Shown: positions 28,406 through 55,636, counted from the stretch's first letter. The stretch is DNA of 64,000 nt from Gammaproteobacteria bacterium (GCA_965277715.1 OZ255836.1:448001-512000); one strand, 5' to 3'. Notes: generated by a model from the letters alone, not told the origin. Made by a program: numbers and translations.

Positions 28406-28617
28406 TGTCTTTCTCCAAATCAGTTAAATGGTCAAACGGTGATTTTTGGCAGCCCTATTGAACAAAACCGCCCACAATCGCCGATGGCGCTATCTTACGA
28501 TACTACAATCTTGTGTCAATTAAGCCTGTTTCAAGTGTAATACAACTTAATGTTATTTATCCTGATACAAACGGTAGCATATTCCCTGTCGATTAAGTAT
28601 TATGCCCCGCGTTTACA

Positions 28618-28722
28618 GGGGCGCTGGCTGAGTGGTCTGAAAAATCGTCTGGAACGATTTTTCACCGAGCGAAGCGAAGGCCCCGAAGGGGTGAGGGCAC
28701 GGACAGCCCGAATAAAGCGGCG
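28618..28722 (+). repeat. Degenerate tRNA-Ser 5' copy interrupted by a multi-hairpin tRNA-associated repeat
   Basis: GCTGGCTGAGTGGTC and AAAGCGGCG match the downstream tRNA D-arm. They are separated by ~73 nt with hairpins TGAAAAATCGT/ACGATTTTTCA, CCCC-GAA-GGGG and GGGC...GCCC. Confidence 0.65.
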
Positions 28723-28789: not shown

Positions 28790-28877
28790 GGAGAGCTGGC
28801 TGAGTGGTCGAAAGCGGCGGTCTTGAAAACCGTTGAACCGTGAGGTTCCGGGGGTTCGAATCCCTCGCTCTCCGCCA
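28790..28877 (+). tRNA. tRNA-Ser(TGA)
   Basis: GGAGAGCTGGCTGAGTGGTCGAAAGCGGCGGTCTTGAAAACCG, long variable arm, GGTTCGAATCCCTCGCTCTCCGCCA. Confidence 0.96.
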
Positions 28878-29020: not shown

Positions 29021-30175
29021 GTGGCGGAAAAGCACTCAATTCTTGGTGGAAAAGTCCACGTCTACAAGCGAACGGGAAGCCCTGTATGGCAATGTTCAGC
29101 CTATTTAGCGGGTAAAAATCACCGAGTAAGTTCAAAAGAAGAGAGTTTGGCAGCAGCCAAGGATTTTGCTGAAGACTGGTATTTAACACTTCAGGATAAA
29201 AACCGCCGTGGAGAATTGCTCACAGAGAAAACGTTCCGGCACGCCGCTGAGCGTTTCAAACTTGAATATGAAGTTTTAACCGAAGGTGAGCGAAACGCCG
29301 TGTGGGTGAGAGATCACTATCGGCGCATTGATAAGCATTTGACTCCTTTCTTTGGCAAGATGGGACTTTCAACTATCACATCTGGAACAGTTCAAGATTA
29401 TCGGATTAGCCGTTTAAAGCCGGAAGATGGGAAACATATACCCTCCAGAAGCACCCTGCATCACGAAATGGTAACGCTACGTATGGTAATGAAGGCGGCA
29501 GTGAGGCATGGGTGGCTTCAATACCTGCCTGATCTCTCTGAACCATATCGTGTTTCAAATAAAGTGGTTCACCGTGCGTGGTTTTCGCCAAGCGAATATC
29601 AGCTATTGTATAAAACCACTCGTAAGAAATTAAAGGAGAAAAAAGACGACAAATATGGGTATATCTGGGCGAATCTCCACGACAAGATATTATTTATGGC
29701 CAATACCGGTATTCGTCCTGATGAAGCCAACTGCCTTGAATATCGGGATGTCGAGATTGTCAAAGACGACGCCACCGGCGAGACAATTCTCGAAATAGAG
29801 GTGCGCGGTAAGCGCGGTGTAGGATATTGCAAAAGCACCACCGGTGCTGTTAGACCTTTTGAAAGAATGAAGGAGCGAAATCAGCCAGAATCGACCGACC
29901 GTCTCTTTCCGACTGATAACCATAGACACTTTAATGAAGTGTTGACAGAAATTGATTTAAAATTTGATCGGCAGGGGAACCGCAGAACACTCTATTCTCT
30001 CCGCCATAGTTATATTTCATTTAGGTTGCTGGAAGGCGCTGATATATATCAGATCGCAAAAAACTGCCGTACCAGTGTTGAGATGATTGAGAAGCACTAT
30101 GCTGTGCATTTAAAGAACAATCTGGATACAGCGGCAATCAATGTAAGGAAAGGCCGTTTGTTTCATCCTGCTTAA
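29021..30175 (+). CDS. Tyrosine integrase of the tRNA-Ser island
   Basis: Arm-binding N-terminus; NTGIRPDE, RGKRG, YSLRHSY, TSVEMIEKHY. Confidence 0.92.
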   Translation: MAEKHSILGGKVHVYKRTGSPVWQCSAYLAGKNHRVSSKEESLAAAKDFAEDWYLTLQDKNRRGELLTEKTFRHAAERFKLEYEVLTEGERNAVWVRDHYRRIDKHLTPFFGKMGLSTITSGTVQDYRISRLKPEDGKHIPSRSTLHHEMVTLRMVMKAAVRHGWLQYLPDLSEPYRVSNKVVHRAWFSPSEYQLLYKTTRKKLKEKKDDKYGYIWANLHDKILFMANTGIRPDEANCLEYRDVEIVKDDATGETILEIEVRGKRGVGYCKSTTGAVRPFERMKERNQPESTDRLFPTDNHRHFNEVLTEIDLKFDRQGNRRTLYSLRHSYISFRLLEGADIYQIAKNCRTSVEMIEKHYAVHLKNNLDTAAINVRKGRLFHPA

Positions 30176-30492
30176 CCTGTGCTATTTCGTTTAATTTTTT
30201 GTAGCTAATGGACGAAATTTAAAGTAATAATACCCTCCTAAGTGTCAGTTTTTTGCTCTAAGTAGACACTGGAAAAGCTCACTACTTGCAGACTTATCGG
30301 TAATCTGGTGAGATAAATACTTAAACAAAATAGAGCTACTTGGAAGTTAGCGAGAATAGACTTGCATTCAGCATTTAAATTAGTACCCTGAATACTGACC
30401 CGTAGGTCACCGAGAGAAATAATTTTCTTGGGTTGCGAGCACATGCTTAATTCAATGATAGAGCGAAATTTGCCGTTAATATCGGGAAGAAA

Positions 30493-30541
30493 CGGGCTCA
30501 TAACCCGAAGGTCGTTGGTTCGAATCCAGCCTCCGCGACCA
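30493..30541 (+). repeat. Orphan 3' fragment of an initiator-type tRNA-Met(CAT), probable att site of an inner element
   Basis: CGGGCTCATAACCCGAAGGTCGTTGGTTCGAATCCAGCCTCCGCGACCA covers anticodon arm to CCA with no 5' half. It lies ~90 bp upstream of a recombinase. Confidence 0.8.
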
Positions 30542-30632
30542 AGTTTCTAGATTATCAGTGGTATAATGGGTTTTCAAACCAGTAAAAAAGCGCTCTCAGT
30601 GACCTATGGGCTAAGCCCTAACCCCACAGAGA

Positions 30633-31544
30633 ATGTCAGAAATTTACCACCAGCTTCACGCCTTCTGCGAGTACTCTCTCGTTTTTAAAGGTAACACCGA
30701 GCGTTCCGTTGACACCTACCGTCGCGAACTAAGTGCTTATATCAAGTTTAGCGATGCACAAACCGTCGCCGATATAGACCAGTCGCAAATACAAAAATAC
30801 ATAATGCGTGGCAAGCTAGAACTTAACTGGTCGGCCAAGACGATTCGCAATAGAATTATCTCTCTTAGAATATTTTTAGATTGGTGTCTCAAACAAGGGT
30901 TAGTGACAGATAATCCTGCACGTACCATTGACCTTCCTCGACTACCCAAAACTCTCCCTCGTTCGTTGTCTAAAAACGATGCTTTTACCTTGCTCGAATG
31001 GGCGGCAAACTATCGATATACCTATAAATTCGAGCAGACGCGAGCTATTGCCATTCTCTCTTTGTTTATCTTCACCGGTATTCGCTTAAAAGAGCTGTAC
31101 GGCCTCAAAATGCAGGATATTAGGCTGACCGAAAGAAGTGTGTTTGTCTGTTCGGGTAAAGGACAAAAAGACCGCCTAATTCCGATGAACCACGATTTAG
31201 CGATTGCACTACAAGCCTACATTAAAGAGCGTGATCGTCGTAAACGCCATTGCCCTTACTTATTCGTTTCTCTCAAGCACGATATTCGTATGGGTGACAA
31301 AGTTGTGCCTCGTTTAGTTAACAAATTGCGCGAATGTAGCGACATCTATTTTTATCCACATATGCTGAGACATACCTTTGCGACTCTCATGTTAGAAGGC
31401 GGGGCGGATATTTTTGCCATCAGCAAAATGATGGGGCACAGCGATATCAAAACGACCACTATTTATCTATCGGTCACCACCGCTCACCTTCAAGCGGAAG
31501 TGGCCAAACACCCTCTTGGCACTATAAAAGCCTTATCTCACTAA
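30633..31544 (+). CDS. XerC/XerD-like tyrosine recombinase A
   Basis: LPRSLS, FTGIRLKE, GKGQKDR, PHMLRHTFAT, MGHSDIKTTTIY (full R-K-H-R-H-Y). Confidence 0.93.
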   Translation: MSEIYHQLHAFCEYSLVFKGNTERSVDTYRRELSAYIKFSDAQTVADIDQSQIQKYIMRGKLELNWSAKTIRNRIISLRIFLDWCLKQGLVTDNPARTIDLPRLPKTLPRSLSKNDAFTLLEWAANYRYTYKFEQTRAIAILSLFIFTGIRLKELYGLKMQDIRLTERSVFVCSGKGQKDRLIPMNHDLAIALQAYIKERDRRKRHCPYLFVSLKHDIRMGDKVVPRLVNKLRECSDIYFYPHMLRHTFATLMLEGGADIFAISKMMGHSDIKTTTIYLSVTTAHLQAEVAKHPLGTIKALSH

Positions 31545-32409
31545 TGCTACTCTTTAAGCTCTCAGTCGAAACGGAAAGGTAGGTCAATGTAGTGGTAATG
31601 CAGGAATGCCCCAATATTTCTTTAATTTTAAACACATCAACGTTGGCTTCAACCAGCAGCCGAGCACAAGTGTGCCGCAACATATGCGGCGTAAAATAAA
31701 TCCCTGTTTCGTGTGATAGTTTTTGGCAAACAGTACGCACATTTTTTCCCGAAATTGGTTTTTCAGATTGAGCGCCTGTGAAAAAATACCGGCTATAGTT
31801 TCGGCGAGATTTACGTTCTGCAAGGTAATTTTTTAGGATGGGTAACAACCGAGGATGAATAGGGACGATGCGATCTTTCTGCCCTTTTCCTTGACGTACC
31901 AGAATTTCTCGACTGACTAAATTTACATCTGGCACTTCTAAATCCAACATTTCTTGCAACCGGAGGCCGGTGTAAACTAATAGATAAAGCATCGTTTCGT
32001 TGCGGATAGCTTCAAATCGATACCGCCAAGCAAACCATCTAACGCCGTTTAGAACCGACTGAATATCCTCTCTGCACAGGCAACGCGGTAATCGCTGGGG
32101 AAGTTTGGGTTTTTCTATGCCATCAATCGGATTGATTTTAATCAATTGTTGTTTAACGCACCAACTGAAAAATGATCGTAAATATTGCCAGTTATTGCGA
32201 AAGGTTCGCGCTTCCCATGCCCGTTCTTCTTTACCCCAGTAAAGAAAAGCCCGCACTGTTCCACAATCTAGTTGCGTAATTTCTACCGTATCCGCCCACA
32301 CGCAAAGTGCGTTTACCGTAGCCATGATGCTGCGAAAACTTTTAGGTCGCATCCCGCGTTCGTGCAGGGCATAACGTTTAAAGGCATACACCACATCATT
32401 TACTTTCAT
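31522..32409 (-). CDS. XerC/XerD-like tyrosine recombinase B, convergent paralog of A
   Basis: LPRCL, YTGLRLQE, GKGQKDR, PHMLRHTCA, LGHSCITTTLTY; the two 3' ends overlap by 23 bp. Confidence 0.93.
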   Translation of the reverse strand: MKVNDVVYAFKRYALHERGMRPKSFRSIMATVNALCVWADTVEITQLDCGTVRAFLYWGKEERAWEARTFRNNWQYLRSFFSWCVKQQLIKINPIDGIEKPKLPQRLPRCLCREDIQSVLNGVRWFAWRYRFEAIRNETMLYLLVYTGLRLQEMLDLEVPDVNLVSREILVRQGKGQKDRIVPIHPRLLPILKNYLAERKSRRNYSRYFFTGAQSEKPISGKNVRTVCQKLSHETGIYFTPHMLRHTCARLLVEANVDVFKIKEILGHSCITTTLTYLSVSTESLKSSISEIRLL

Positions 32410-33262
32410 TACTGGTGGGGGTAGGAAGCGGAAAAGGATTAGCAGGCGTATTGTCGGCAAAATGCCAGCCTCCCGAAAAATTTGTGTTCAGATCATCTAA
32501 GGCACGAAACACAAAATTGTGTTTAAAAGGAGCAAACTCTGGATGTGCGTTTAGCCGCGTTTTAACGCTGGCTAGCACGCTGGCTTGATGGTGTACCGAA
32601 CAGATAATGGGGTGGCCTGCATAACCAAACTGCTGTTGAACCACGCCACTTTTGATGACTTCACAATACCGATTCAGTTGCTCGGTGACGGCTTTGCTTT
32701 GGGTCGAGCGATGAATCTCTACCAAGTACACCGCTGTCTGACCTGTATTCAAGCCAACGGCAAATACTCCATCAGGAATGACCGTATTAATTAAACTGGA
32801 CACCACCAGCTCTGTGGCTGATTTGCCGCGCCCTTGGCCAGCGTTTCCATGGCGGATAAAATCTTGCAGTTCCAGTAACACCTCAGCATCGCCTCGCTGT
32901 TCTGTCCATTGCCTCAAACCAATCTGAAAGTCCACCTGTGCAAAGCGGTGACGGGCAAAAAGCGCGGAAAATGGCTGTTTTTTGTTTGAAGGTACAGGTT
33001 CGCTTTCTATCCGCTCGATTTCCTGCAAAATACTGCGTCCCCTGTTGGTCAAATGGTGAACGTCCGGCAAAAACGAACCTATTTTTTCTGAATGAATGTA
33101 CTTGTGGTGTCGGAGAGCGAACAAGGTTTTATCGCGTAATGACTTCGCATTCTTAGAAATACCTAATTGCAGCATTTGCTCTACGGTTAGAAACCGATAC
33201 AGGTGCAAGGCTTGCATTACGCGCCACTGTTGGGGACTCACAACCGAAAAAGCCGTAGTCAT
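32396..33262 (-). CDS. Replication-relaxation (Replic_Relax / MOBC-like) protein 1
   Basis: N-terminal wHTH (YRFLTVEQM...HHLTNRG) and PD-(D/E)xK-like PDGVF...YLVEIHRST; directly downstream of a coupling protein. Confidence 0.75.
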   Translation of the reverse strand: MTTAFSVVSPQQWRVMQALHLYRFLTVEQMLQLGISKNAKSLRDKTLFALRHHKYIHSEKIGSFLPDVHHLTNRGRSILQEIERIESEPVPSNKKQPFSALFARHRFAQVDFQIGLRQWTEQRGDAEVLLELQDFIRHGNAGQGRGKSATELVVSSLINTVIPDGVFAVGLNTGQTAVYLVEIHRSTQSKAVTEQLNRYCEVIKSGVVQQQFGYAGHPIICSVHHQASVLASVKTRLNAHPEFAPFKHNFVFRALDDLNTNFSGGWHFADNTPANPFPLPTPTSNESK

Positions 33263-33275
33263 AAGAAAAATACAA

Positions 33276-34988
33276 TTAGAAAAAGTACGGCGTCCAATCC
33301 GTTTCAGAATGGAGTTTTTGCTCGCTATCACTTTGGGGGGAGGGTTTGCGATAGTAATCTTTGACCTGCTGTCGCGTCACTTTTCCCCACTCTTTGGGTG
33401 TCATAGCGAATCGGCGACCGATAAAACGAAGGCGCTGGCGAACGGTGGGCTTATCACCAACCACTCGAAAAAAAGATAAATTAGGTAGGGTACGAATCTG
33501 TGCCGTCCCTAAATCGGTTTCCTTCGCTAGTTTTTCGGCGGTGGTGTGACGCGAAGCCCCCACCCAAATAGTACCAACGTTGCCTAAAATGGCGTCTTGC
33601 AAATCGGGATCAAGCCGTTCGACCCGCTGGGTGGCCAACGTGGCATAAAGCCCAAACTTTCGGCTTTCGCCCAATATGTCGGCAATGGTCGGACTAACGA
33701 AATACTGGCATTCATCCACAAATAAATGAATCGGCTGCCGCTTGTAAGGCGTCCGTCCCAGCACATGGCTCAAAATGGCGGCATTGAGTAACTGACCAAT
33801 AGCGCGGATAGTGTCGGCACTTTGTTTTGACGGGTCAAAACACACCACTAACACCTTGCCAGAATCCAACACTTTTCCCAGATCAAAACTGCTTCTATGA
33901 CAGGTAAAGCGTCGCACAAAGGGATCACGCACCACATCAGTCAAGCGAGCCACTAAAGCTTGTTTGGTGGCGCGGTAGTGCGACTTGGCAAAGGTGGCGA
34001 TAAAGAACTGTCGGTCAATAATATTAGGCAAGTTCTCTTTTCCGTAGCGCACCAGATCAACATTTTGCTCGTCTTGCAGCAAGCGCACCAAATCCACCAA
34101 GGTCATATCGGGTTTGTGAAGCATGACCCCCAAACACGCTCGCATCAGTGTTCTCTGGATCGGCGTAAATGACTGGCCGATGATTTGTTCTATAGCACCG
34201 GAAAACTGCAACTGGGCGCGATTAAGTTTTTGCTCGGTGGGATGGGCTAAATCGAACGGGTTGAGGTGCACATGCTGGCCAGCAATGCCATTAAAGTTGA
34301 GATAGACCAACCGGTTATTTTTACGGTTTACCCGATCACGCACGATAGATCGGGCTAAGTCTCCGTGTGGATCAAGCACTACCAAAGATGGTTTTTTGTT
34401 CCACACCAAATAATGACGGATGAGGTTGTGCAGTAATACAGATTTACCCACACCTGTGCGCCCGACGATAAAGGTGTGTAGCCTCCGAAGATGTTCATTG
34501 ACGAAAAACCAGATAGGTAACATGGCTCCAAGTAACTGGCCGAACCAAAGCAGGATACGAAAAAAACCAGTGGTAATAAGCCACCAAATACTGTCAAAAC
34601 ATAGCGTCATTAATCGCACCGATAAGGCGTGTCGATAGAAAAAATTTCTAACGTGTTTGGGGTCTTGTTTTTGTCTTTGCATGGCTTCCAGAATAACGGA
34701 GGAACACACGACTTGTGAAACATTACGACTAGCGTTAACCCCTTTGAAATGGGAGTGTAGGGCGTTTTGAAAGGGGTATCGATTGAGACTTGCAAAGTGG
34801 TTTTTCAGGTGGTTTAGAAAGTGGTTACAAGAGAGATTTTTAACGGTGGTGTAAAGTATGTTTTGATATACGTATTCGAGGTAGCCCCGATGCCTTGCAA
34901 AAACCGTTTGCCAAAGCAAAAAAGTTCCCCATTCTCGGTGTAAAAATATCTGAATCAGTAGATAGGGGGATAAAAAAATCGATGCCAT
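33276..34988 (-). CDS. VirD4/TraD-like type IV coupling ATPase 1
   Basis: HTFIVGRTGVGKS, LDPHGDL, LFVDECQ, ESRKFG...ATQ, ILGNVG; N-terminal hydrophobic segment. Confidence 0.85.
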   Translation of the reverse strand: MASIFLSPYLLIQIFLHREWGTFLLWQTVFARHRGYLEYVYQNILYTTVKNLSCNHFLNHLKNHFASLNRYPFQNALHSHFKGVNASRNVSQVVCSSVILEAMQRQKQDPKHVRNFFYRHALSVRLMTLCFDSIWWLITTGFFRILLWFGQLLGAMLPIWFFVNEHLRRLHTFIVGRTGVGKSVLLHNLIRHYLVWNKKPSLVVLDPHGDLARSIVRDRVNRKNNRLVYLNFNGIAGQHVHLNPFDLAHPTEQKLNRAQLQFSGAIEQIIGQSFTPIQRTLMRACLGVMLHKPDMTLVDLVRLLQDEQNVDLVRYGKENLPNIIDRQFFIATFAKSHYRATKQALVARLTDVVRDPFVRRFTCHRSSFDLGKVLDSGKVLVVCFDPSKQSADTIRAIGQLLNAAILSHVLGRTPYKRQPIHLFVDECQYFVSPTIADILGESRKFGLYATLATQRVERLDPDLQDAILGNVGTIWVGASRHTTAEKLAKETDLGTAQIRTLPNLSFFRVVGDKPTVRQRLRFIGRRFAMTPKEWGKVTRQQVKDYYRKPSPQSDSEQKLHSETDWTPYFF

Positions 34989-35253
34989 AAAAGAATTAAA
35001 AAATAAAATATGTCAGTAGTTTATGATAAAAATTGGTAGAGACTGAGCTTTGGGTATGACGTAAGAAGCCAGATTTTATTGACAGCCGATTTTAACGTAA
35101 ATCTCAGGTAACAAGGCCACTTCCTTATTTAAAATTAATAAAACAACAGTAAGTACATACTGATTCACCGCAAATAATGAAAATTTGATGAAGTTGTGGT
35201 ATCACATCGAAGTGTAATTTCGTTAAAGTGCTGGCTCTTAACCCTTTTCACTT

Positions 35254-35703
35254 ATGGACGATACCGAATTGCAATACTGGTATAAATATCAAACGCAGCT
35301 AGATCAAAACGGTTATGACGAGCTAGCCTCGCGGGTAGAGTTAATCACCAAGGTAGCAGCACCGGCGGCGACCGAAATAGAAAAAACAATCCGCATCTGT
35401 ACGCTTAACGATGTCTTACGGATTACCGGTATTGGCGGCGAAATTTATATGACTACAGGCATACAAGCTCTTTCTGAAAATACCCAAAATAGTGTCCTGC
35501 TTGCTATCCGTACATTTGTCGATTTTAACAACGACAATGACCCCTACAAAAAGCATGATTGCGCGATCCTTCAGTCAACAAATCCCCGTTCAATGTTCAA
35601 GATTGATTATTACGACAAGACCAAGACCTATGGATCAGAAGCACCGGAAAACCCAAGTGTCACGAGCCGCGTAATGACGATGATGACACCAGGCGAGTAT
35701 TAA
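35254..35703 (+). CDS. DUF3768-like protein
   Basis: LND.LR...MTTGI...FNNDNDPY..HD...FKIDYYD...RVMTMMTPGEY. Confidence 0.75.
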   Translation: MDDTELQYWYKYQTQLDQNGYDELASRVELITKVAAPAATEIEKTIRICTLNDVLRITGIGGEIYMTTGIQALSENTQNSVLLAIRTFVDFNNDNDPYKKHDCAILQSTNPRSMFKIDYYDKTKTYGSEAPENPSVTSRVMTMMTPGEY

Positions 35704-36569: not shown

Positions 36570-37261
36570 TGGCTCCCACGGTAGAGAGTGGGGCTAAAAA
36601 GGCAAATTTACAACCGAGACACAAAATCCATGTTCCCGCACAAAATGGCAATAACTGAGACAGTCAATGTGTGATCGTGAACCTGATTTGGTGTCGATAG
36701 CGCCGTATAATATGGCCAGCTTAGCTTGATTTTTCAGTTGTAAGCCCATATTAAGTCTCTCTAGTAAACGAACTGTGTTTAATTGAAGAACAATAAACAC
36801 AAACATTGCTTTTTTGTAATATATTAGAAAAATTCTTATATATCAAATAGATAATGATTCTCGGTGATTTGTAGGTTGCTTTTGGCCAATTTGTGCAAAA
36901 AAGCTAATATTTACAGAAGGTTATATCTTTTCTGTGCAAGAGTTTTATTTGAATTTTGACGTTTGTGAAGGTTGCGTGAGTGATAATTGCTAGACAACTG
37001 CATGGCGGCTTCTATAATTATCTCTCAAGCGGGTTCAAAAGCCTGCTTATCGGTGGGAGCGCTTTTTGCTACCTTGTTGAAGCCAGTTCCCAGACAAGCA
37101 GCCTATCCAGGCATTCCATGGTATCTTCATCTTATGCTAAAGATATGCCCAAATTGGTCGATATCTAAGGAGCCTCTTATGCTTTTTGGCAGTTCTATTT
37201 GCAAACTTCTCTCAGTGAGTAAACTGAGAGTGTCTCAATTAATTACTAATTTCTTAACACG

Positions 37262-38011
37262 ATGGAAAATGAATTTAACAAGCAAAAGGAGCCAGATGTG
37301 AACAATTTCACCATACTTGATCATATCATAGTAGATAGAATAGATCGTTTAAAACCAAATCCAAAGTACAGAAAATTTGTGGCTAGGATTGAAGACGCAA
37401 GAAATAATGATGAAAATATCAATATTCAAATATCTGATGTAGAAAACCATTTGATATATAAGTTATTTGCCTTTCAAGAGCTAATAAAAAACGCTAAAGA
37501 AAATATAAATATATTTAGTCGGAATTTACCCTCTCAAATATATGATAACCCTCATATACTTTATCATCTCTCTGAATGGTTAAAAGCTGGTGAAGATAGA
37601 AAAATAAAAGTGCTGCTTAAAGAATCAGTTGATTTGAAGGGAAGATCTATTGGCGCTATTTTGTGTTCAGAATATTTTAAAGATAGAATTTCAATAGAAG
37701 TATCTAACCTTCGAGAAATTGACCAGTGCTATCGTAGCTGTGTTCTTTTTGATGATAATGCCTTTATGGCTGGTGAAGCGAATCCGTCAGGTGATATTGA
37801 AATTGCTATTTTTAATTTTCATGACAAGAAGGCTGTCAACTCTTTAAGTCGAGTTTACAATGCAGCTTATAATTTATCTAAGGAAACGAATCCGATTCAA
37901 AGCGAAGAAAATATAGTTGAGAGTAAGATTAATGAAATAATCCACTCGTCAGATCCTGTATCTATACCTCCTTATTTTGTTGCCCATAATATATATCAAC
38001 CGCATGGATAG
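37262..38011 (+). CDS. Hypothetical protein (AT-rich cargo)
   Basis: 249-aa ORF with GGAG upstream; INIFSRNL...IKVLL suggests a non-catalytic PLD-like alpha/beta fold. Confidence 0.6.
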   Translation: MENEFNKQKEPDVNNFTILDHIIVDRIDRLKPNPKYRKFVARIEDARNNDENINIQISDVENHLIYKLFAFQELIKNAKENINIFSRNLPSQIYDNPHILYHLSEWLKAGEDRKIKVLLKESVDLKGRSIGAILCSEYFKDRISIEVSNLREIDQCYRSCVLFDDNAFMAGEANPSGDIEIAIFNFHDKKAVNSLSRVYNAAYNLSKETNPIQSEENIVESKINEIIHSSDPVSIPPYFVAHNIYQPHG

Positions 38012-38120
38012 AATTAAGTATTAGAAGTTGAATGAGTAATATTTTAGTTTATATCTATAATAGTCGTTTTGGTCAACCTTGTAAGCATAATATTCTACAA
38101 TAAAGTAAATAAAGGGCGGA

Positions 38121-38669
38121 ATGACAGATATAATTCCTTTAGCGAGTCTGATACTGGGGGTTGTTGGTGCAGTAGGTGTTTTTGCTTTTTTGCAGAGCTG
38201 TAGAGATATTCCTATTGTGGTAACAAAAAAGATAATTGATGGATATGGACTGCAAGAAAAAATATACAAGAAAAAATATTATGCTGCCTTAGCCGATGGA
38301 TTATCTGAGGGAGTATATGTTAGTGGGAGAGGTATTGACAAAAAAGGATCCGATTCTGATTTATTAAGGTTTCACAACAAAAAGTATTTTGAAGACTATA
38401 TAAACTCTGTGAAAAGAGCCCTTCGTCTAACTGCTTTTATATGTTTTTTTACTTCATTTGGTGTGTTGCTTATAGCGAGTATAGTGTTGTTGCCTTTTAA
38501 AATATCGACCAGTCCAATTTTCCTTCAATTTAAATTGGTTTTTATTTTTACTATGCTAACTGTTTTTTTCTTTCAGTCAATTGAAGCTATTTTTCTAAGG
38601 CCGAAGCGTCAAGGGAAAGCGATGATTGAACGCATAAAAGATGAGATAAACAAAGTAGAGGGCATGTGA
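38121..38669 (+). CDS. Hypothetical membrane protein (3 TM)
   Basis: 182-aa ORF with one N-terminal and two C-terminal hydrophobic segments. Confidence 0.6.
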   Translation: MTDIIPLASLILGVVGAVGVFAFLQSCRDIPIVVTKKIIDGYGLQEKIYKKKYYAALADGLSEGVYVSGRGIDKKGSDSDLLRFHNKKYFEDYINSVKRALRLTAFICFFTSFGVLLIASIVLLPFKISTSPIFLQFKLVFIFTMLTVFFFQSIEAIFLRPKRQGKAMIERIKDEINKVEGM

Positions 38670-38750
38670 TAAAGATATCAAAAGAACATCGTCCCTAAGA
38701 AGCTGAGCTATGGCTTACCCTGTGCTCAATATATATAGAATAACAAGCAA

Positions 38751-38848
38751 GTAGTTGTGGCAAGCACCGCTTTCATCAGACTATTAAAGCTAACTCTTTA
38801 ATCAGTCGTTCCATTCTTTTGGCACACTCTTTCAAATTTGAGTCATAT
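38751..38848. repeat. Direct repeat copy 1 (61 bp identical, ~100 bp similar) of 40327-40424
   Basis: GTAGTTGTGGCAAGCACCGCTTTCATCAGACTATTAAAGCTAACTCTTTAATCAGTCGTTC at 38751 and 40327. Confidence 0.92.
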
Positions 38849-39137
38849 CTAAGGCGGTGGTAACTTTGGTGGCCAGTATGCCAATCGCTATTTTATCGCT
38901 TAGTTGAATTCTGTTCATTTCATCTTGGATTTGATCGAATCGGCTTTGCACCAAATTGGCTTATTTTTCCAGATTCATCATTCGTTCTTGCAAGCTCTCG
39001 GTTGAACGTCGCATAGCTCTCTGTTCTTCCCGAATTTTGAAAAATTGCCGATTGGTATAGGTTTTGAAACCCTTGGATTCTTCCTTGAAGGATTTGAGTA
39101 ATTCGTAGAGTTGTTCGTTGGTAATCTTTTTGTCCAT
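38832..39137 (-). pseudogene. Third, stop-interrupted paralog of the 41660/42023 coiled-coil genes
   Basis: MDKKITNEQLYELLKSFK...TNRQF...LEK*ANL...GILATKVTTA. Shares upstream AAATTTGACGAA with the 41660 gene. Confidence 0.7.
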
Positions 39138-39385
39138 CAGAAGTAGGTTATACCTGTCCTTAATTTCTGATAATTTTTACGTTTTCGTCAAATTTTGCTA
39201 CATTGCAGGGTCAATTTTACGTTTTGTAGAAGGTGAGGATTTGTAGTTTTTAGAAAAGATTAAGCTTTTTATAAAAAAAGACTATATCTTTTTTAATTTA
39301 GGAAAAATAGTTGTTTTTTAAAATTTATTATTTAAAAAAAAATTTTCTCTAGATTTAAATATGAATTTAATTACCTTTCTATTTA

Positions 39386-40165
39386 ATGACTCATCTTTTA
39401 CGAAACTCAAAGAAACTTTTATTATTAATTCTATTTTCTTCATTTTTCGCTACCAGTGCTTTTTCACACTCTGGAAGAACTAACTCATCAGGTTGTCATA
39501 ACAACAATAAAACTGGTGGATATCACTGTCATAATAGTGGTTCAAGTTCTAGCACTTCCTCTAGTAGTTTATATAATTCATACAAGCCGTCATCAACATA
39601 TAGCTTTAAGCCTGCTCAAATTTCCAGTTCTGATGTTTGGGTTAATGGTTATTACAGATCAAATGGAACTTACGTAAACGGACATTATAGATCTAAGCCA
39701 GATGGTGTATTTTCAAATAATTGGTCTACGTTCGGTAATGTTAACCTTTATACAGGTAAATTAGGAACTAAAGTGGCTCCTAGTACTAATTCAAGATATA
39801 ACTACAATAGATCTTCTTCAAAAACAAACTCTATCTCTACATACTCTAACGTAGATAAGTCATTGCCTATAGTTAACACTGTAAAAAAACCTCAAAAAAA
39901 ATTGCACACTCCCAGATCCCACAAGAGGCCAACTTTAATATCAGCTAACCGAAATAGAAAAAATTCATCGGTAAAAGCCGTTCAGTCGACCAATTGGGAA
40001 GATTTTATCAGTTCAAGAAAAGCTATTTGTAGAAATAATGGTATTAGCATTTTAGCCTCTATTTATTATGAAAAAATAATGTTAGATGAATCAGTCATTA
40101 ACTCAATTCCAGCCAGAATAAAGCCTGAAGTTGCTAAATGTTTAGATTTTCTTCAGGACTTATAA
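39386..40165 (+). CDS. Secreted YHYH-domain protein
   Basis: Signal peptide then HSGRTNSSGCHN...GYHCH; also WVNGYYRSNGTYVNGHYRS..D....NNWST.GNVN.YTG. Confidence 0.82.
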   Translation: MTHLLRNSKKLLLLILFSSFFATSAFSHSGRTNSSGCHNNNKTGGYHCHNSGSSSSTSSSSLYNSYKPSSTYSFKPAQISSSDVWVNGYYRSNGTYVNGHYRSKPDGVFSNNWSTFGNVNLYTGKLGTKVAPSTNSRYNYNRSSSKTNSISTYSNVDKSLPIVNTVKKPQKKLHTPRSHKRPTLISANRNRKNSSVKAVQSTNWEDFISSRKAICRNNGISILASIYYEKIMLDESVINSIPARIKPEVAKCLDFLQDL

Positions 40166-40326
40166 TTTCTATGGAAGAAAAATAATTTACCTTTACTGAA
40201 AAAAAGTAATTTTCTGATAGATTAATTTTTAATAAATTTAAAAATAGTTAGATACAAATACCTATAATAAAAAATTCATTACTTGGTCTTTTTTGTCGGT
40301 TTTGGGCGGATTGCTATTCGTTGTAT

Positions 40327-40424
40327 GTAGTTGTGGCAAGCACCGCTTTCATCAGACTATTAAAGCTAACTCTTTAATCAGTCGTTCTGCAATTTCGACG
40401 CACTCTTTCAATTTTGGGTCATAC
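40327..40424. repeat. Direct repeat copy 2; overlaps the 3' end of the 40352-40630 gene
   Basis: Matches copy 1 at an offset of 1576 bp. Confidence 0.92.
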
Positions 40425-40630
40425 TCAAAACGGTTTTTTATTTCTGTCAGCAGTTCGCTGGCTTTTTTTTGCACTTGTTCGTGGCTCCACTCTGTGCCAG
40501 TATTTTTGCTTAATCTCATGGCTTCACCGGCTAGATCACAGTGATCTAATCCGTAGTTATTGACCGAGAGAACTACCAGTTTGATGCCTAAATTTTGAGC
40601 CAATTGATAAGCGATTTTTGATTGTTGCAT
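40352..40630 (-). CDS. Small hypothetical protein
   Basis: 92-aa helical ORF. Its C-terminal coding sequence is conserved at the amino-acid level in the duplicated copy (YDSNLKEC..vs YDPKLKEC..). Confidence 0.55.
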   Translation of the reverse strand: MQQSKIAYQLAQNLGIKLVVLSVNNYGLDHCDLAGEAMRLSKNTGTEWSHEQVQKKASELLTEIKNRFEYDPKLKECVEIAERLIKELALIV

Positions 40631-40831
40631 GGAAAATTTGTTAAAGTTGCACTCCAAACATACTTGCTTTTTTGAAAAGCGAACCTAAAAAGCCCTTGTT
40701 TCTTAACGTAATTTTCATCTTTCCTCATACTATCCCCAATACTAAGCGCGTTAGCAGCCTCAGCGTAATTGAATAAAACTAATATAATACGTTCGCTTTT
40801 CAAATAAGCGCACTGATAGCTCCTAAACTCC

Positions 40832-41605
40832 ATGAAAAACGTGACGAGCCACAATGGTGGTGCTCAGATACAAAGTCAGTCAACGCCCTTGAACACCAAA
40901 AGAAAAAAGAAACGCGGTGGTGGCTGGAACAAAGGCAAAGCGCAAGGACAGAAAAGACCTTTCGAGCCCACAGAAACAGACATTTTATCCGAAATGTTCA
41001 TCAACGAGGAAAATTGGCACGATCTGGCTTTGCTATCCCTTGGCACCGACAGTTTTTTTCGGTCTGTCGATCTGCTTTCTTTGCGTTGCATCGATGTGTG
41101 CTATTCAACTGGGCAAGTCAAAGAGGTGTTACCCAAACAGCAAAAGAAAACATCGGGAGTGGTTTACCCTCCTTTAACCCCAGTAACACAAGCCAATTTG
41201 CAACACTGGATAGATGTTTCTGGCAAAAAATCAGCGGATTTTTTGTTCACTGGCACCAAGAAAAAGTCAAAAGGTCTGACACAACCTATTACCAGATACC
41301 ACTTGAGCCGCAAGGTAAAGACATGGGCGGAGTGGTTGGGGTATCCACCAGACGATTATGCTTCTCATTCATTGAGGCGTACCAAAGCCGCTTTGATGTA
41401 CAAAAAAGGCGAACCAATCGAGCATATATCGGAACTACTCGGTCACAAATCGACCAAGGTAACCCTGCGGTATTTAGGTATCACGCTGGAAGAAATCCAC
41501 GCTTCGGCGTTGCGGCATACCATGACCCGATCCTTCGACAGCCGCAAAACAGGCCGAACAAAACAGGAAATCCGGCGAGAATTTTTGACCAAGAAAAAGA
41601 AATAA
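40832..41605 (+). CDS. Tyrosine recombinase (catalytic domain only, plasmid/resolvase-like)
   Basis: WNKGK..GQKRPF, SFFRSVDL, SHSLRRTKA, LLGHKSTKVTLRYLG. Confidence 0.88.
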   Translation: MKNVTSHNGGAQIQSQSTPLNTKRKKKRGGGWNKGKAQGQKRPFEPTETDILSEMFINEENWHDLALLSLGTDSFFRSVDLLSLRCIDVCYSTGQVKEVLPKQQKKTSGVVYPPLTPVTQANLQHWIDVSGKKSADFLFTGTKKKSKGLTQPITRYHLSRKVKTWAEWLGYPPDDYASHSLRRTKAALMYKKGEPIEHISELLGHKSTKVTLRYLGITLEEIHASALRHTMTRSFDSRKTGRTKQEIRREFLTKKKK

Positions 41606-41659
41606 ATTTGACGAACTGTTTATTTTGGGTAGATATTAAAGATACAAAACCCTTTATTT

Positions 41660-42010
41660 TTGATGACGGCTCAAATTACCAACGACCAACTCAACCAAAA
41701 AATCGATCACCTCGACCAGAAATTAGGTCAATTATACGAATTGATGAAGGATTTCAAAGCCGACACCAATCGGCAATTCGACCGAATCGATACACGAATG
41801 GGTCGTATCGAGGAGGATGTGCGAGTGCTCGACCAGCGAACGCAGCGCCTCGAACAACAAACCAATCAAACCCAAAACGAGTTGGCTCAAGTCACGGCCA
41901 AAATCGGCCAAATACACGTTTCTTGGAACCACAAACTTGTAGGTGGTGTATTGGCTACCAGCGTGACCGCTTCGGCTTTGGTGGTTTTGTTAATTCATCA
42001 TGCTTTGTAA
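41660..42010 (+). CDS. Small coiled-coil protein with C-terminal TM helix (paralog 1)
   Basis: Heptad repeats and C-terminal LVGGVLATSVTASALVVLLI; TTGACG promoter-like motif upstream. Confidence 0.75.
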   Translation: MMTAQITNDQLNQKIDHLDQKLGQLYELMKDFKADTNRQFDRIDTRMGRIEEDVRVLDQRTQRLEQQTNQTQNELAQVTAKIGQIHVSWNHKLVGGVLATSVTASALVVLLIHHAL

Positions 42011-42022
42011 CTCTCTTTTACA

Positions 42023-42307
42023 ATGATGACCCAAGTTACCAACGACCAACTTTACGAACTCCTCAAGGAGTTCAAAGCCGATATGAATCAATTCAAAACC
42101 GAGATGTACCAGTTCAAATCGGATACGCAGAGAGGCTTGTCTCAGCTCGATTTCGACCTGCGAGCACTCGACCAGCGAACGCAACGCCTCGAAACCAAAG
42201 TCGATGGTATTCACGTTTCTTGGAACCACAAACTCGTGGGCAGTGTACTAGCTACCAGCGTGACCGCTTCGGCTTTGGTGGCTTTATTAATGCAACATGT
42301 TTCTTAA
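42023..42307 (+). CDS. Small coiled-coil protein with C-terminal TM helix (paralog 2)
   Basis: Tandem paralog sharing LDQRTQRLE and IHVSWNHKLVG.VLATSVTASALV. Confidence 0.75.
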   Translation: MMTQVTNDQLYELLKEFKADMNQFKTEMYQFKSDTQRGLSQLDFDLRALDQRTQRLETKVDGIHVSWNHKLVGSVLATSVTASALVALLMQHVS

Positions 42308-42327
42308 ACTTTTTAACCTTTTTAAAA

Positions 42328-42744
42328 ATGGCTTTAAACCAATTCGGTACCGGCGTGGCAGCAGCAGCATTGGCTCTTTCCGCCAATAATGCTTTGGCTG
42401 ATGAACCAGCCACGGGCTTAGAACACCTTGCCCCAGCCGTAGTAGAGCAAATCGCGGAGAACTATCGAGCGTGTATTGAGGAAAATATTTTAGCGTCTGA
42501 TTGGAATGGTGACGGAAAAATTTCTAACACCGGTTCACCCGATGGCTACGAAGAAGCAGACGCTTTAGCTGACTTAAACGACAGTTGTGATGAAAATGTT
42601 GAACAAGACATCACTCTGGCCGAACTGAAACAACGAATTGCTGTAGCAAAACAAGAGGGTGCTGAGGCTGACATAGCCATTGCTGCCATAACGACCAAGT
42701 TGATGGAGGAACTTAGAGTCAAATTCAATCAAGAAAATAACTAA
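42328..42744 (+). CDS. Secreted acidic protein with EF-hand-like loop
   Basis: Signal peptide MALNQFGTGVAAAALALSANNALA; DWNGDGKIS loop; two Cys. Confidence 0.7.
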   Translation: MALNQFGTGVAAAALALSANNALADEPATGLEHLAPAVVEQIAENYRACIEENILASDWNGDGKISNTGSPDGYEEADALADLNDSCDENVEQDITLAELKQRIAVAKQEGAEADIAIAAITTKLMEELRVKFNQENN

Positions 42745-42758
42745 GCGGTTAACCTGCG

Positions 42759-44195
42759 ATGAATGACCAGCTATCGTCAGCCCCCAGCGAAGACCAGCAC
42801 GCTCTTGAAAAGCAAGCCTACTGCGCGGCCTGTACCACTGAGCGCGCCGCCTTACAGCAAGAGGTTGAGCCACCAGAAAACCGGGTAGCCGTGTTTGCAC
42901 AATTAACCATTGCCGGTGGCAAGTGGGAGAAGCTCGAACCCCAAGACCGGCAAGCCGAAGCCTGCCAAATTTTGTGTGACTACGAAATAGATAAACGTGA
43001 AAGAACGCCCGCATTTGACCTGACAAGTCGGCCTATTCAGTTTGTTCAAAGACTCGTTAATCAAAACCTCACCACGGTTAGTAAGGACACCGCAATCAAT
43101 GATGAAGAACAACAGGCGCAAAAAGAAGAAACGGTAAAACAAAAAAAACAATCTACGCAAGCCGACTATCAGAACTTTATAAGTGAACTAATCGCTACCC
43201 CCGAATGGCAAAAGCTATCATTCATCGAGCAAATGAATCAATTAGTCACCGAGCCAGCCGTGCCCGAAACAGAAAAAGCCAAACTGCGCCAGTTCCAAAA
43301 GATTTTGGATTTATCACAGGCCGTACCAGCCGACCAAGCCATTATCGAGCAGCGCTTAAACACGCTGGATTTTAGCCAAGGCATCCCCAGCCCCACGGCC
43401 TTTATCCAACAGGCTATTTTTAGTTCGCCAGAGTATGACAGCGGCATAAGTGCGGCCACCCAAAACGCCATTGCCACCGAGTTTAAACTGACCCCACGCT
43501 CGATTAAAACCGGCAGCGATTACACCGCCGCCATGAGCGCCACAAAAACGAATGCCAACGGCCAAGTGTCACCCGCGTTTCCCGAAAGCGCACCGCTCAA
43601 GTTTCGCCCCGGGTTGGAAGGGTTTACTTCCAATAACGGCCAAGATGAATTTATGCGAGCCACCACCTCGCACGGTGACCGCTGGCAAGTAGAAGTAACC
43701 GACTGGACTCCCAACGATAAAGCGCTCGCCGCTGAGTTATTGCAACTGTGGGCGATGACCGAAGAAGCCGGAGAAAGTGGTTATTTAATGTCGCTAACCC
43801 AACTAGATTGGGCGGCCACCAGCCGTATAGACCCACTCAAATTAAAAGACGCCGCCCAAATTATCAACGCCACTTTTGGCGGATTTTCGGGGTACAACGG
43901 CGAAATTTTTTACGGTGATGACGAACTCAACATGATTCGCTGGCAAGCCCAACTTAAAACCCCCAAAGGAGACGCAGCGCGTAGTGACCGCAATATGAGC
44001 ATGACCGACGACGCTTTAAAAGGCTTAAAAATTCGCGATAATGAAGGGAATGTAGATTTAGACGTATTGCGAGCCTTCGGTGAATATTCCAGAGACAACT
44101 GTTTTGTCACCCCCGACTATGAGGCGGTACAAACCCATTTGGCAACATTATTTCCAGAAAAATTCAAGAACGACAAAAACCGCCGGAACTTTTGA
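42759..44195 (+). CDS. Hypothetical protein (478 aa)
   Basis: Long ORF with natural composition; no recognised motif. Confidence 0.7.
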   Translation: MNDQLSSAPSEDQHALEKQAYCAACTTERAALQQEVEPPENRVAVFAQLTIAGGKWEKLEPQDRQAEACQILCDYEIDKRERTPAFDLTSRPIQFVQRLVNQNLTTVSKDTAINDEEQQAQKEETVKQKKQSTQADYQNFISELIATPEWQKLSFIEQMNQLVTEPAVPETEKAKLRQFQKILDLSQAVPADQAIIEQRLNTLDFSQGIPSPTAFIQQAIFSSPEYDSGISAATQNAIATEFKLTPRSIKTGSDYTAAMSATKTNANGQVSPAFPESAPLKFRPGLEGFTSNNGQDEFMRATTSHGDRWQVEVTDWTPNDKALAAELLQLWAMTEEAGESGYLMSLTQLDWAATSRIDPLKLKDAAQIINATFGGFSGYNGEIFYGDDELNMIRWQAQLKTPKGDAARSDRNMSMTDDALKGLKIRDNEGNVDLDVLRAFGEYSRDNCFVTPDYEAVQTHLATLFPEKFKNDKNRRNF

Positions 44196-44248: not shown

Positions 44249-44515
44249 ATGCCATCTAGTTCTATACTGAGCGTCCGAGTCAGCCCAGACGAAAAAATAA
44301 TGATCCAACACGCCGCCGAACGTACCCGCTCGTCCGTGGCCGAATTTATGCGCCGCAAAGCCTTAGAAGGGGCAGAATTAGAGTTGATGGAGCGTCGAGT
44401 GGTACAGATTGCCCCCGATCAGTGGGCAAACTTTGAAGCCATGCTGGCGGCACCTGCTACCGATATTCCAAACTTAAAAAAACTGTCTCAACGCCCGCCT
44501 GCATGGGAAAAATAA
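44249..44515 (+). CDS. DUF1778 RHH antitoxin (TacA/AtaR-like)
   Basis: LSVRVS..EK..I..AA...SVAEF...QWANFEAML..P; upstream of a GNAT gene. Confidence 0.88.
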   Translation: MPSSSILSVRVSPDEKIMIQHAAERTRSSVAEFMRRKALEGAELELMERRVVQIAPDQWANFEAMLAAPATDIPNLKKLSQRPPAWEK

Positions 44516-45009
44516 CCGCGCCACGCCCGCTGGCGCAAACCGACAACCGAGATAATTTTGATTGTGGCCACGAGAGCCTTAATCATTGGTTCAAACGCCA
44601 CGCGTGGGGTAATGAGCGCCAAAATGCGTCACGTACCTATGTGGTTTTTGATAAAGAAATCGACCAAGTAGCAGGCTATGTGACTTTGGCGACCGGACAG
44701 ATTGAGCGAGCGTACTTGCAAAAAACCAAGCAGCGAAACTTGCCCGACCCCGTACCGGTTTTGATATTAGGACGGCTCGCCATTGATATTAAATATCAGG
44801 GGCAAGGCCTCGGTGCCGACTTGCTCAAGTTCGCCCTGCAACTCACGGTTGCCATCTCACAGTCTGTGGGCATTGTTGGCGTGTTAACTCACCCGTTATA
44901 TGCAGATGTTAGACCCTTCTACGAACGACAAGGATTTTTGGCAGTGCCGGGAGACCCCAAAGGGAGTCTATTTTTGACCGTCAAGCAACTAAAGCAAAAT
45001 GGGTTTTGA
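44503..45009 (+). CDS. GNAT acetyltransferase toxin (TacT/AtaT-like)
   Basis: FDCGHESLN.W, PVPVLILGRLAID..YQGQGLG, FYERQGF. Confidence 0.9.
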   Translation: MGKITAPRPLAQTDNRDNFDCGHESLNHWFKRHAWGNERQNASRTYVVFDKEIDQVAGYVTLATGQIERAYLQKTKQRNLPDPVPVLILGRLAIDIKYQGQGLGADLLKFALQLTVAISQSVGIVGVLTHPLYADVRPFYERQGFLAVPGDPKGSLFLTVKQLKQNGF

Positions 45010-45057
45010 CACCTCTATTGAGCACGCTAAAATAACCATAAACTAACATTACCCCTT

Positions 45058-46917: not shown

Positions 46918-47070
46918 TGAGGGGCGTAAAAGGCTAAAGTTCTCATGCCAAGCGTAGAAAATGGAATCATCGGTTATCGTCACGACCTTCTCGAATCTCG
47001 GCTATAACGTCACGAATTTGACAAATAACCAGCCAGTGTTAGCATGAGGACTATACTAAAACCAGTATCT

Positions 47071-55575: not shown

Positions 55576-55636
55576 GCGGTCTTGAAAACCGTTGAACCGT
55601 GAGGTTCCGGGGGTTCGAATCCCTCGCTCTCCGCCA
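55576..55636 (+). repeat. attR, duplicated 3' part of tRNA-Ser
   Basis: Identical to 28817-28877. Confidence 0.95.

Follow-up and report, generated by a model that had tools for sequence, protein, structure and literature searches.

A probable mobilisable-element backbone with paired Xer-like recombinases and a tRNA-fMet-derived attP site, carried as a passenger in a tRNA-Ser island

We analysed a 64,000-nt stretch of the genome of a Gammaproteobacteria bacterium (GCA_965277715.1, OZ255836.1:448001-512000; hereafter the window, with positions counted from its first letter), which contains a candidate backbone of an integrative mobilisable element (IME). Within about 4.6 kb, this backbone combines a tRNA-derived attachment (att) site, the genes of two Xer-like tyrosine recombinases, here called YrA and YrB, the gene of a relaxase candidate, and that of a type IV coupling protein (T4CP):

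30399..30416, + strand: L site, a core-like half-site CCCGTAGGTC(ACCGAGAG), 98 nt upstream of the anticodon-loop copy
30494..30541, + strand: attP core, a 48-nt copy of the tRNA-fMet 3' half (anticodon stem to CCA)
30559..30567, + strand: TGnTATAAT, read from the sequence as a possible extended -10 promoter of YrA
30593..30627, no strand assigned: R site, where two core-like half-sites form an imperfect palindrome, ending 6 nt before the YrA start
30633..31544, + strand: YrA, att-proximal Xer-like simple tyrosine recombinase, 303 aa
31522..32409 (open reading frame, ORF, to 32460), - strand: YrB, paralogue of YrA, 295 aa from the likely ATG at 32409
32396..33262 (ORF to 33331), - strand: candidate relaxase, divergent Replic_Relax (MOBC-type), 288 aa from the likely ATG at 33262
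33276..34988, - strand: T4CP, VirD4/TraD/TrwB-like ATPase, 570 aa

An earlier note on this DNA had described two similar recombinases of about 300 aa with complete catalytic residues and no arm-binding domain, and this description held in all its parts. Both proteins scored well above the cut-off of the Pfam Phage_integrase model (113.9 bits for YrA and 116.8 bits for YrB; cut-off 27.1), and they are 35% identical to each other (101/285, E 2e-67). Orthologue alignments showed that the catalytic set R151/K176/H243/R246/H269/Y278 of YrA is invariant in eight orthologues and the set R150/K175/H242/R245/H268/Y277 of YrB in seven. Because the SAM-like domain starts near residue 10-30 (residues 10-89 in YrA; 26-112 in YrB, counted in the 312-aa frame), there is no room for an arm-binding domain. 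Both proteins missed the NCBIfam equivalog cut-offs, YrA with 200 bits versus 329.6 for XerD and YrB with 166.3 bits versus 335.15 for XerC. The nearest solved relatives of YrA are XerA (4a8e), XerD (1a0p, E 7.7e-27) and Brujita Int (5vfz, E 5.9e-17). The YrB family comprises 140 protein clusters at E ≤ 1e-40, with only XerD or tyrosine recombinase as source names, and plasmid matches to YrB were all below 31% identity. Kinship with RIT elements by way of the best plasmid match was considered and rejected, this match being an IS91-associated recombinase.

As likewise claimed before, the YrA and YrB genes overlap tail to tail, by 23 nt (31522-31544), and YrB is the last gene of a tightly packed string, in which T4CP and relaxase genes are separated by 13 nt and relaxase and YrB genes overlap by 14 nt. 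The coupling ATPase was borne out by two profiles, TrwB_AAD_bind (35.3 bits; cut-off 20.5) and T4SS-DNA_transf (30.2 bits; cut-off 20.1), together with a Walker A motif (GRTGVGKS) and a Walker B-like motif (HLFVDE). Since all NCBIfam models stayed far below their cut-offs, this T4CP falls outside every named subfamily; it is 54% identical to its counterpart at L001 and 78% (C-terminal part only) to that at L140, two related loci in other genomes.

The Replic_Relax label that the third protein of the string had been given applies to it through its relatives and not through its own sequence. PF13814, the Replic_Relax family of Pfam, was matched by 17 of 25 aligned relaxase homologues (best E 3.7e-9) and is carried by 43 of 87 database homologues. 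BLASTP found no similarity between the candidate and the bona fide Replic_Relax protein that lies elsewhere in the window (E 0.35); comparison of the two profiles by hhalign gave a probability of 80% (E 1.5e-5, 202 columns). In this alignment, IPDG...VEIHR of the candidate pairs with FPDA...VEIDR of the PF13814 protein, behind a putative N-terminal winged-helix part. D164 of the candidate is invariant among its homologues and E182 and H184 are nearly so; the motif D...E-x-(H/D/K) is presumably the nuclease-like motif of Replic_Relax relaxases. Because its relatives match PF13814 and the profiles align, we accept the protein as a putative divergent Replic_Relax subfamily, although it fails the model itself. 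A search of 72,556 plasmid records with the relaxase returned three weak ones (25-31% identity) and no plasmid form of the module.

The att site postulated earlier proved to be real. Its core (30494-30541) has no second copy within the window and was matched in 0 of 100 shuffles, and among species-representative genomes a 45-nt pattern of the tRNA 3' half (four degenerate positions) found 67 loci, 59 of them complete tRNA-fMet genes. The core contains the anticodon-loop copy CTCATAA (30497-30503), the presumed crossover point, followed by the right half-site CCCGAAGGTC (30504-30513), which corresponds to the anticodon-stem/variable-loop segment of the tRNA. Versions of this 10-mer are found on both sides of the core, so that CCCGTAGGTC at 30399 (L), CCCGAAGGTC at 30504 (core) and the inverted CCCATAGGTC at 30601 (R) stand at -98, +7 and +104, counted from where the loop copy begins. 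The 64-kb window holds, on both strands, six 10-mers with at most one mismatch to CCCGTAGGTC, and three of the six are these positions (30399, 30504, 30601), within 212 nt. The L site is also the left arm of an 18-nt inverted repeat whose partner occupies 30593-30610, and the R site is made up of the inverted half-site CCCATAGGTCAC (30599-30610) and a degenerate direct copy (30615-30627). A second type of half-site, and with it two DNA specificities, was considered and rejected, since the second half of R is a degenerate copy of the first (12/17 positions by eye).

This spacing recurs in relatives. Two Saprospiraceae metagenome-assembled genomes (MAGs; Bacteroidota, L156 and L162) have offsets of -98, +7 and, inverted, +102 to +104, and at L140 the distances of the half-sites from the start of YrA (-234, -129 and -32) equal those in the window. 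At L127, the L site lies at -228 and the core at -122 from the YrA start, with L at about -92 from the loop copy; no R site was found there within two mismatches. To the left of the core, the DNA of the window, L127, L140 and L001 is homologous over at least 150 nt. Both arms therefore belong to the element, and the site is an attP, unrecombined and unused at this locus, rather than an island junction, a distinction that the earlier note had not drawn. The same note had given YrA its own TATAAT promoter: TGnTATAAT is present at 30559-30567, but without a -35 hexamer, and a consensus promoter scan, which returned nine sites versus 8.3 expected, did not list it. A YrA promoter at this position is thus sequence-plausible only, and the R site could possibly double as an operator.

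With YrB, YrA, the relaxase and also the att pattern as queries, 15 pair loci were brought together, the window counted among them, in five phylum-level groups (Pseudomonadota, SAR324, Bacteroidota and two candidate phyla). The loci are not independent: L005, L006, L007 and L128 are near-identical, and L002 and L003 belong to one MAG. A locus search based on the YrA alignment picked up generic motifs and hence mostly ordinary Xer genes, with only L024-L031 informative among the 80 retained of 588 relatives, and a metagenome scan contributed two useful loci of 11. The two genes are arranged as follows:

Convergent (8 loci): window, L001, L004, L127, L140, L156, L162, L163
Co-directional, with the att site between the genes (7 loci): L002, L003, L005, L006, L007, L128, L109

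Convergent overlap is accordingly no conserved trait. Tight tail-to-tail packing occurs in four phyla, as an overlap of 23 nt in the window, 8 nt at L001 and 4 nt at L004 and with the genes abutting within 10 nt at L156, L162 and L163; at L140, 57 nt separate the genes, and at L127 4.3 kb of cargo lie between them. YrA and YrB of L127 are 59% and 69% identical to those of the window. Its YrB homologue (14-971, + strand; 69-75% identical) is split over two frames, with a break near position 680 at about 2.5x coverage, so that either an error of sequencing or decay of the gene could account for it.

What all 15 pair loci share is a tRNA-like 3' half about 85-145 nt upstream of YrA. It resembles tRNA-fMet in most loci and tRNA-Asn in those of SAR324, is of unassigned type at L109, and is represented by a complete tRNA-fMet at L004 and a complete tRNA-Thr at L140. 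YrB-type genes were never seen alone, a YrA-type gene lying within 5 kb in 15/15 loci. Among 42 recombinases placed in a tree, the YrA type formed a pairA clade (support 99/99) and the YrB type a pairB clade (100/99) with similar internal branching, both inside a 30-row group (100/100) apart from generic Xer matches; the divergent pair of L109 fell outside the two clades. The sister clade contains single recombinases beside tRNA-Lys or tRNA-Thr genes, and four of its seven rows are partnerless. By this tree and these neighbourhoods, YrA and YrB are a pair of ancient duplicates with joint inheritance.

The module is a real and recurrent unit, and its full order att-YrA-YrB-relaxase-T4CP was found again in two other genomes (L001 and L140). 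Relaxase and T4CP genes directly precede YrB in only these three loci, however. In the Terasakiella-type relatives L005, L006, L128 and L109, YrB is preceded by a DUF3768 gene, and in L002, L003 (with a Toprim-primase further upstream) and L004 (with RadC nearby) by a small ORF; this comparison leaves aside L127, L007 and three pattern-scan loci, whose upstream side is cut off or lies outside it. Co-occurrence was also judged indirectly, from matching lengths of the longest contigs: of 45 relaxase homologues located on contigs of 4 kb or longer, at least 17 agree in this length with a YrB homologue. This count is a lower bound; it misses the known positives L001 and L140, whereas L139 is a true negative.

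Integrated forms of the site were found in relatives. At L004, in a Gracilibacteria MAG (G003) where YrA and YrB are convergent, YrA directly adjoins a complete tRNA-fMet that is followed by the R site, and G+C falls from 0.55 to 0.41 exactly at this YrA-side tRNA. Another contig of G003 carries, at a G+C drop, a 45-nt copy of the tRNA 3' half that begins with the loop CTCATAA, and 97 nt to its left, on the element side, stands an L site, CCCGAAGGTC(AC). The L-core-R arrangement is thus split into an attR with L and an attL with R, which matches a crossover in the anticodon loop. The attL form was also seen at L145 (Peribacteria), where a complete tRNA and the R site are present and the L site is absent. 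L026, in the sister clade, is a 1.85-kb element with little beyond the recombinase, bordered by tRNA-Lys and a 28-nt repeat of the tRNA 3' end. A seeming L site in front of the complete tRNA of L004, an 11-mer that contains one mismatch, was dropped because such a match is expected by chance. Islands at the same tRNA-fMet anticodon-loop site were also found at L125 (G002:C65, 722-8783) and L124 (G003:C7), with arm-domain-bearing integrases and their own Replic_Relax and T4CP genes; tRNA-fMet seems to be a shared hot spot for such elements.

In the window, the module lies inside a larger insertion, which the earlier note had not recorded:

28790..28877, + strand: tRNA-Ser(TGA), integration target of the island (ARAGORN; Rfam tRNA 58.6 bits)
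28817-28877, + strand: left 61-nt direct repeat, the 3' end of tRNA-Ser (repeat family D3)
29021..30175, + strand: Int384, divergent tyrosine recombinase of 384 aa, 144 nt downstream of tRNA-Ser (weak profile evidence)
35254..35703, + strand: DUF3768 gene, divergent from the T4CP gene (Pfam 100.4 bits)
49412-50308, - strand: bona fide Replic_Relax protein of a second mobilisation set (PF13814, E 2e-20)
50305-52764, - strand: 819-aa T4CP of the second set, 24% identical to the first T4CP
49412-54247, - strand: second mobilisation set overall, including a 496-aa coiled-coil DivIVA-like protein
55576..55636, + strand: right 61-nt direct-repeat copy, the displaced 3' part of tRNA-Ser and right end of the island

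The two 61-nt repeats (28817-28877 and 55576-55636) are 100% identical, and G+C is 0.32-0.50 between them versus 0.53-0.58 outside, changing from 0.43 to 0.55 at 56 kb. On account of this exact repeat and the G+C contrast, 28878-55636 is a 26.7-kb island in tRNA-Ser. Repeats of this kind border the island, whereas the site of the 4.6-kb module is single in the window. The island contains two relaxase-T4CP sets and at least four recombinase genes, and the presence of a second mobilisation set makes it composite. No VirB4 or other mating-pore family was detected among its 29 ORFs (31 scanned, ORFs of at least 60 aa); the scanned ORFs thus comprise an integration module of their own and a relaxase and no mating-pore genes, the combination by which an IME is recognised.

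Int384 probably is the integrase that inserted the island in tRNA-Ser, as judged from the tRNA genes that its homologues adjoin. It contains the motifs NTGIRPDE and LRHSY and a C-terminal HY; in Pfam it gave sub-threshold N-terminal SAM-like matches only, its homologues weakly match Phage_integrase, and a profile comparison with YrA (probability 49%, E 1.8e-4) lined up the Arg and LRH motifs. Searches of PDB sequences with Int384 and the relaxase profile as queries returned no useful match. In a Rhizobiaceae MAG (L139), an Int384 homologue (85% identical) adjoins tRNA-Ser(CGA), together with a relaxase that is 77% identical and a truncated T4CP; IS3 and serine-recombinase genes stand there in the place of YrA and YrB. 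In Terasakiella (L005 and L109), homologues 59-62% identical adjoin a complete tRNA-fMet, with the YrA/YrB pair 1-2 kb away, and a displaced tRNA-fMet fragment is found on a large contig of the genome of L005. No Int384 homologue was found in genomes G001, G002 and G003, which hold four pair loci (L001-L004), and the YrA/YrB module can therefore exist without Int384. For annotation, three layers that a first reading had merged can be told apart at the locus: a tRNA-Ser island with its own integrase, an IME backbone that is a passenger and whose attP is unused, and a further set of mobilisation genes. Between Int384 and YrA, an 87-aa ORF without a family match (30238-30501, - strand) overlaps the left arm of attP and is probably not a gene.

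We consider 30397-34988 probably to be the backbone of an IME, consisting of attP, YrA, YrB, a MOBC-type relaxase and a T4CP, and carried as a passenger in the tRNA-Ser island. The attP consists of the L half-site, the tRNA-fMet 3'-half core and the R palindrome, with L and R about 100 bp from the core. YrA is read away from attP, with a possible promoter of its own and R as a possible operator, and YrB is translationally coupled to the relaxase and T4CP genes. In the mechanism that we propose, YrA, most likely with YrB as a XerC/D-like pair, would bind the core and the L and R sites, the latter two occupied by extra recombinase protomers, and the pair would recombine attP with the anticodon loop of a host tRNA-fMet, restoring the tRNA gene on integration. 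After excision, the relaxase would nick an oriT, and the element's own T4CP would dock the DNA to the type IV secretion system of a helper element. At the present locus, the module is a passenger, and the insertion of the island in tRNA-Ser is probably due to Int384.

Several observations speak against this interpretation. The relaxase protein itself fails the Pfam threshold, with no PF13814 match even at E ≤ 10, and no oriT was identified. The identity of Int384 as a recombinase rests on weak profiles, and its AlphaFold model is poor (mean pLDDT 52.3, from a 6-sequence alignment). Because most pair loci, including the window, are in the attP form, with a clear attL only at L004 for a pair and at L145 for a YrA-type gene, there are few documented cases in which the pair has integrated. 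L140 carries a complete tRNA-Thr(TGT) between L and R (3228-3560, - strand), at the spacing of the window and in place of the tRNA-fMet half, an arrangement that simple recombination of attP with attB does not yield; L140 could be an attP with a whole tRNA gene or a tandem junction, and its anticodon-side half-site CCCGTAGGTC, which equals the L-site motif of the window, may account for a switch of target. Partnerless YrA-type recombinases exist not only in the four sister-clade rows mentioned above but also in the pairA clade itself (L024 and L145), so that YrB may not be needed for integration. Finally, the palindrome of R is nearly symmetric, and close relatives do not share the left half of the attP core, which gives no sign of two DNA specificities.

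How the two recombinases share the work can be read in different ways, and joint catalysis by YrA and YrB, as far as sequence comparison can tell, is about evenly balanced. Chance plays next to no part: that two unrelated neighbouring elements each contributed a recombinase, a possibility already named as a refuting one in the earlier note, could appeal to the composite nature of the island with its duplicate mobilisation genes and several recombinases, but the pair recurs in 15 loci and five phylum-level groups, with stop codons that overlap or abut in several and with congruent clades, which makes accidental adjacency practically negligible. We also regard it as very improbable that pair and site serve plasmid-style multimer resolution, as XerCD does at cer or psi with accessory sequences, rather than integration. 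In contigs the site is indeed commonly found unrecombined, ParA and ParE-type stability genes stand beside the pair at L005, L006 and L007, and accessory sequences flank the core as they do at cer or psi; yet a tRNA copy of 45-48 nt that runs to the CCA end is the signature of sites that rebuild a tRNA, and G003 offers matching attL and attR and L145 an attL form. Somewhat more room, though a limited amount, must be left for YrA as the sole integrase, with YrB given to another task such as multimer resolution of the circle, action at a second unseen site, excision only, or regulation. This possibility, which we rate as unlikely but worth retaining, draws on single YrA-type genes beside complete tRNAs (L145 and L026-L028) and the 1.85-kb recombinase-only element, on recognisable half-sites that are all of one type with R nearly symmetric, on an att site that always accompanies YrA whatever the orientation of YrB, and on the two-frame YrB of L127. 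It is countered by the fact that no YrB-type gene lacks a YrA-type gene within 5 kb and that the clades branch alike; no second conserved site was seen near YrB, and the frame break of L127 possibly reflects a sequencing error at its low coverage.

The earlier note had gone further and proposed an obligate YrA/YrB heteromer in which YrB is made only when the transfer operon is on, coupling excision to transfer, with the 3' overlap as an antisense switch of direction. YrB does stand last, translationally coupled behind relaxase and T4CP, in the window, L001 and L140, a further string of the kind T4CP-Replic_Relax-tyrosine recombinase occurs in the genome of L001, its recombinase being short and unrelated, the tail-to-tail packing is tight in four phyla, and both proteins keep the full catalytic residue set. 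However, in seven of the 15 pair loci both genes point the same way and enclose the att site, L127 has 4.3 kb and L140 a 57-nt gap between them, YrB follows a DUF3768 gene or a small ORF and not transfer genes in seven loci, and YrA-type singletons occur. The antisense switch is thereby left unsupported, and the coupled scheme as a whole is improbable. Doubtful, albeit less so, is a further reading, namely that the pair is an obligate XerC/D-like heterotetrameric integrase in which YrB, supplied from a transfer or replication operon, sets which strand pair is exchanged first and hence directionality; YrA would then occupy the tRNA-side half-site and the accessory sites L and R. If this were true, a recombinase paralogue would do the work of the Xis-type factors and arm-binding domains of classical integrases, and insertion in almost any bacterium, including candidate phyla, would be open to the element because the initiator-tRNA anticodon arm is nearly universal. 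For the IME backbone as we read it, the points of note are the conserved paralogue pair, the three-part attP that mimics an initiator tRNA and could be mapped with fixed spacing, and the compactness of integration and mobilisation functions in about 4.6 kb. The control of direction in integrases without an arm-binding domain is poorly understood, and core-like accessory sites together with a second paralogue are relevant to it.

Among known systems, the chromosomal XerC/XerD recombinases (acting at dif and, on plasmids, at cer or psi) share with YrA and YrB the fold, the catalytic set and the best NCBIfam models (XerD and XerC); two paralogues could form a heterotetramer, and accessory DNA lies beside the core. 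The pair differs from them in scoring far below the equivalog cut-offs, in its separate clade (100/100), in its tRNA target, and in its element-borne, adjacent genes. In Tn4430, the single tyrosine recombinase TnpI, which lacks an arm-binding domain, uses extra core-type motifs of the IRS as accessory sites in cointegrate resolution; compared with this system, the present one has a tRNA-directed attP and two paralogues. CloDF13 represents the type in which a MobC relaxase is combined with its own coupling protein. IMEs and mobilisable plasmids with a MobC relaxase and their own VirD4, including two putative Streptococcus IMEs, are described in section 3.3 of PMC5704250, and like those described there the module joins a MOBC-kind relaxase to an element-encoded T4CP without a mating-pore gene; it departs from that description in its sub-threshold divergent relaxase, its hosts among Proteobacteria and other phyla, and the recombinase gene in the same string. 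For the integrative conjugative elements (ICEs) ICEPmu1 and ICEMh1 of Pasteurellaceae, PMC6861422 reports two XerCD-like recombinases, presumed to work in tandem, whose target is the anticodon loop of tRNA-Leu, which is argued there to allow a broad host range. These elements, compared here by description only, resemble ours in having two Xer-like tyrosine recombinases on a transferable island and an anticodon-loop target; they are, however, large self-transmissible ICEs with 11-13-bp repeats in tRNA-Leu, whereas the mobilisation backbone described here measures 4.6 kb and has L and R accessory sites beside a tRNA-fMet copy of 45-48 nt, which some relatives replace by an Asn- or Thr-like one. 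In view of these two publications, the novelty claimed for the module was too strong. Brujita Int and Helicobacter XerT, according to PMC8138268, are relatives of Xer that have about 300 aa and no arm-binding domain and carry out both integration and excision of mobile elements; both act singly, whereas here a conserved paralogue accompanies the integrase. In RIT elements, according to PMC3414803, three recombinase genes adjoin and overlap one another, point in one direction and make up a unit of about 3.5 kb, and three close tyrosine recombinase genes (Int384, YrA and YrB) likewise occur here and in Terasakiella-type loci. Classification as a RIT element was nonetheless rejected: Int384 (+) is followed after 457 nt by YrA (+) and then YrB (-), gaps are 457-1700 nt with mixed orientation, and Int384 is absent from G001-G003. 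In the literature covered, which leaves out most subscription journals, we found no description of the YrA/YrB family or of a tRNA-fMet-directed pair beyond ICEPmu1/ICEMh1. The family is without a specific name and spread over several phyla; the kind of element, with one or more Xer-like integrases, a MOBC relaxase and its own T4CP, is already known.

Elsewhere in the island, behind the gene of a short tyrosine recombinase (257 aa), lie two coiled-coil mini-ORFs that are paralogues of each other (41660-42010 and 42023-42307; repeat families D1, D4, D6 and D8) and the gene of a 478-aa protein without a known family (40832-44195 in all, + strand). Homologues are present in the genome of L001 (L108, 10434-16129, - strand) in the order T4CP, Replic_Relax, recombinase (259 aa), and proteins of 145, 493 and 577 aa, and the string is predicted to be a second recurrent transfer operon with a terminal recombinase. 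The region 37000-41000 has very low G+C (0.32-0.36) and carries DUF7931 and DUF2207_C-like ORFs; within it, a 108-nt direct repeat (38751-38858 and 40327-40434, 86% identical) flanks a 259-aa ORF (39386-40165), which may be a small inserted element. Cargo at 44503-47715 includes genes for a GNAT acetyltransferase and for a protein of 619 aa that ends in a SEC-C motif, to which its weak PADLOC match (PDC-S12) is confined, and a 98-aa ORF with a PIN-domain protein, likely a toxin-antitoxin pair. Outside the island, 172 nt upstream of tRNA-Ser, 23 nt (28615-28637) are 87% identical to the 5' start of this tRNA; neither ARAGORN nor Rfam called a tRNA at this position, which may be a relic of a tRNA 5' half. 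The stretch 30300-35300 was found as contigs in seven public sequencing runs from four studies, with no RNA run among those listed. The run that matches it best may come from the source sample itself, and at least half of its sampled words are present in six runs from at least three studies, several of them labelled sponge metagenome.

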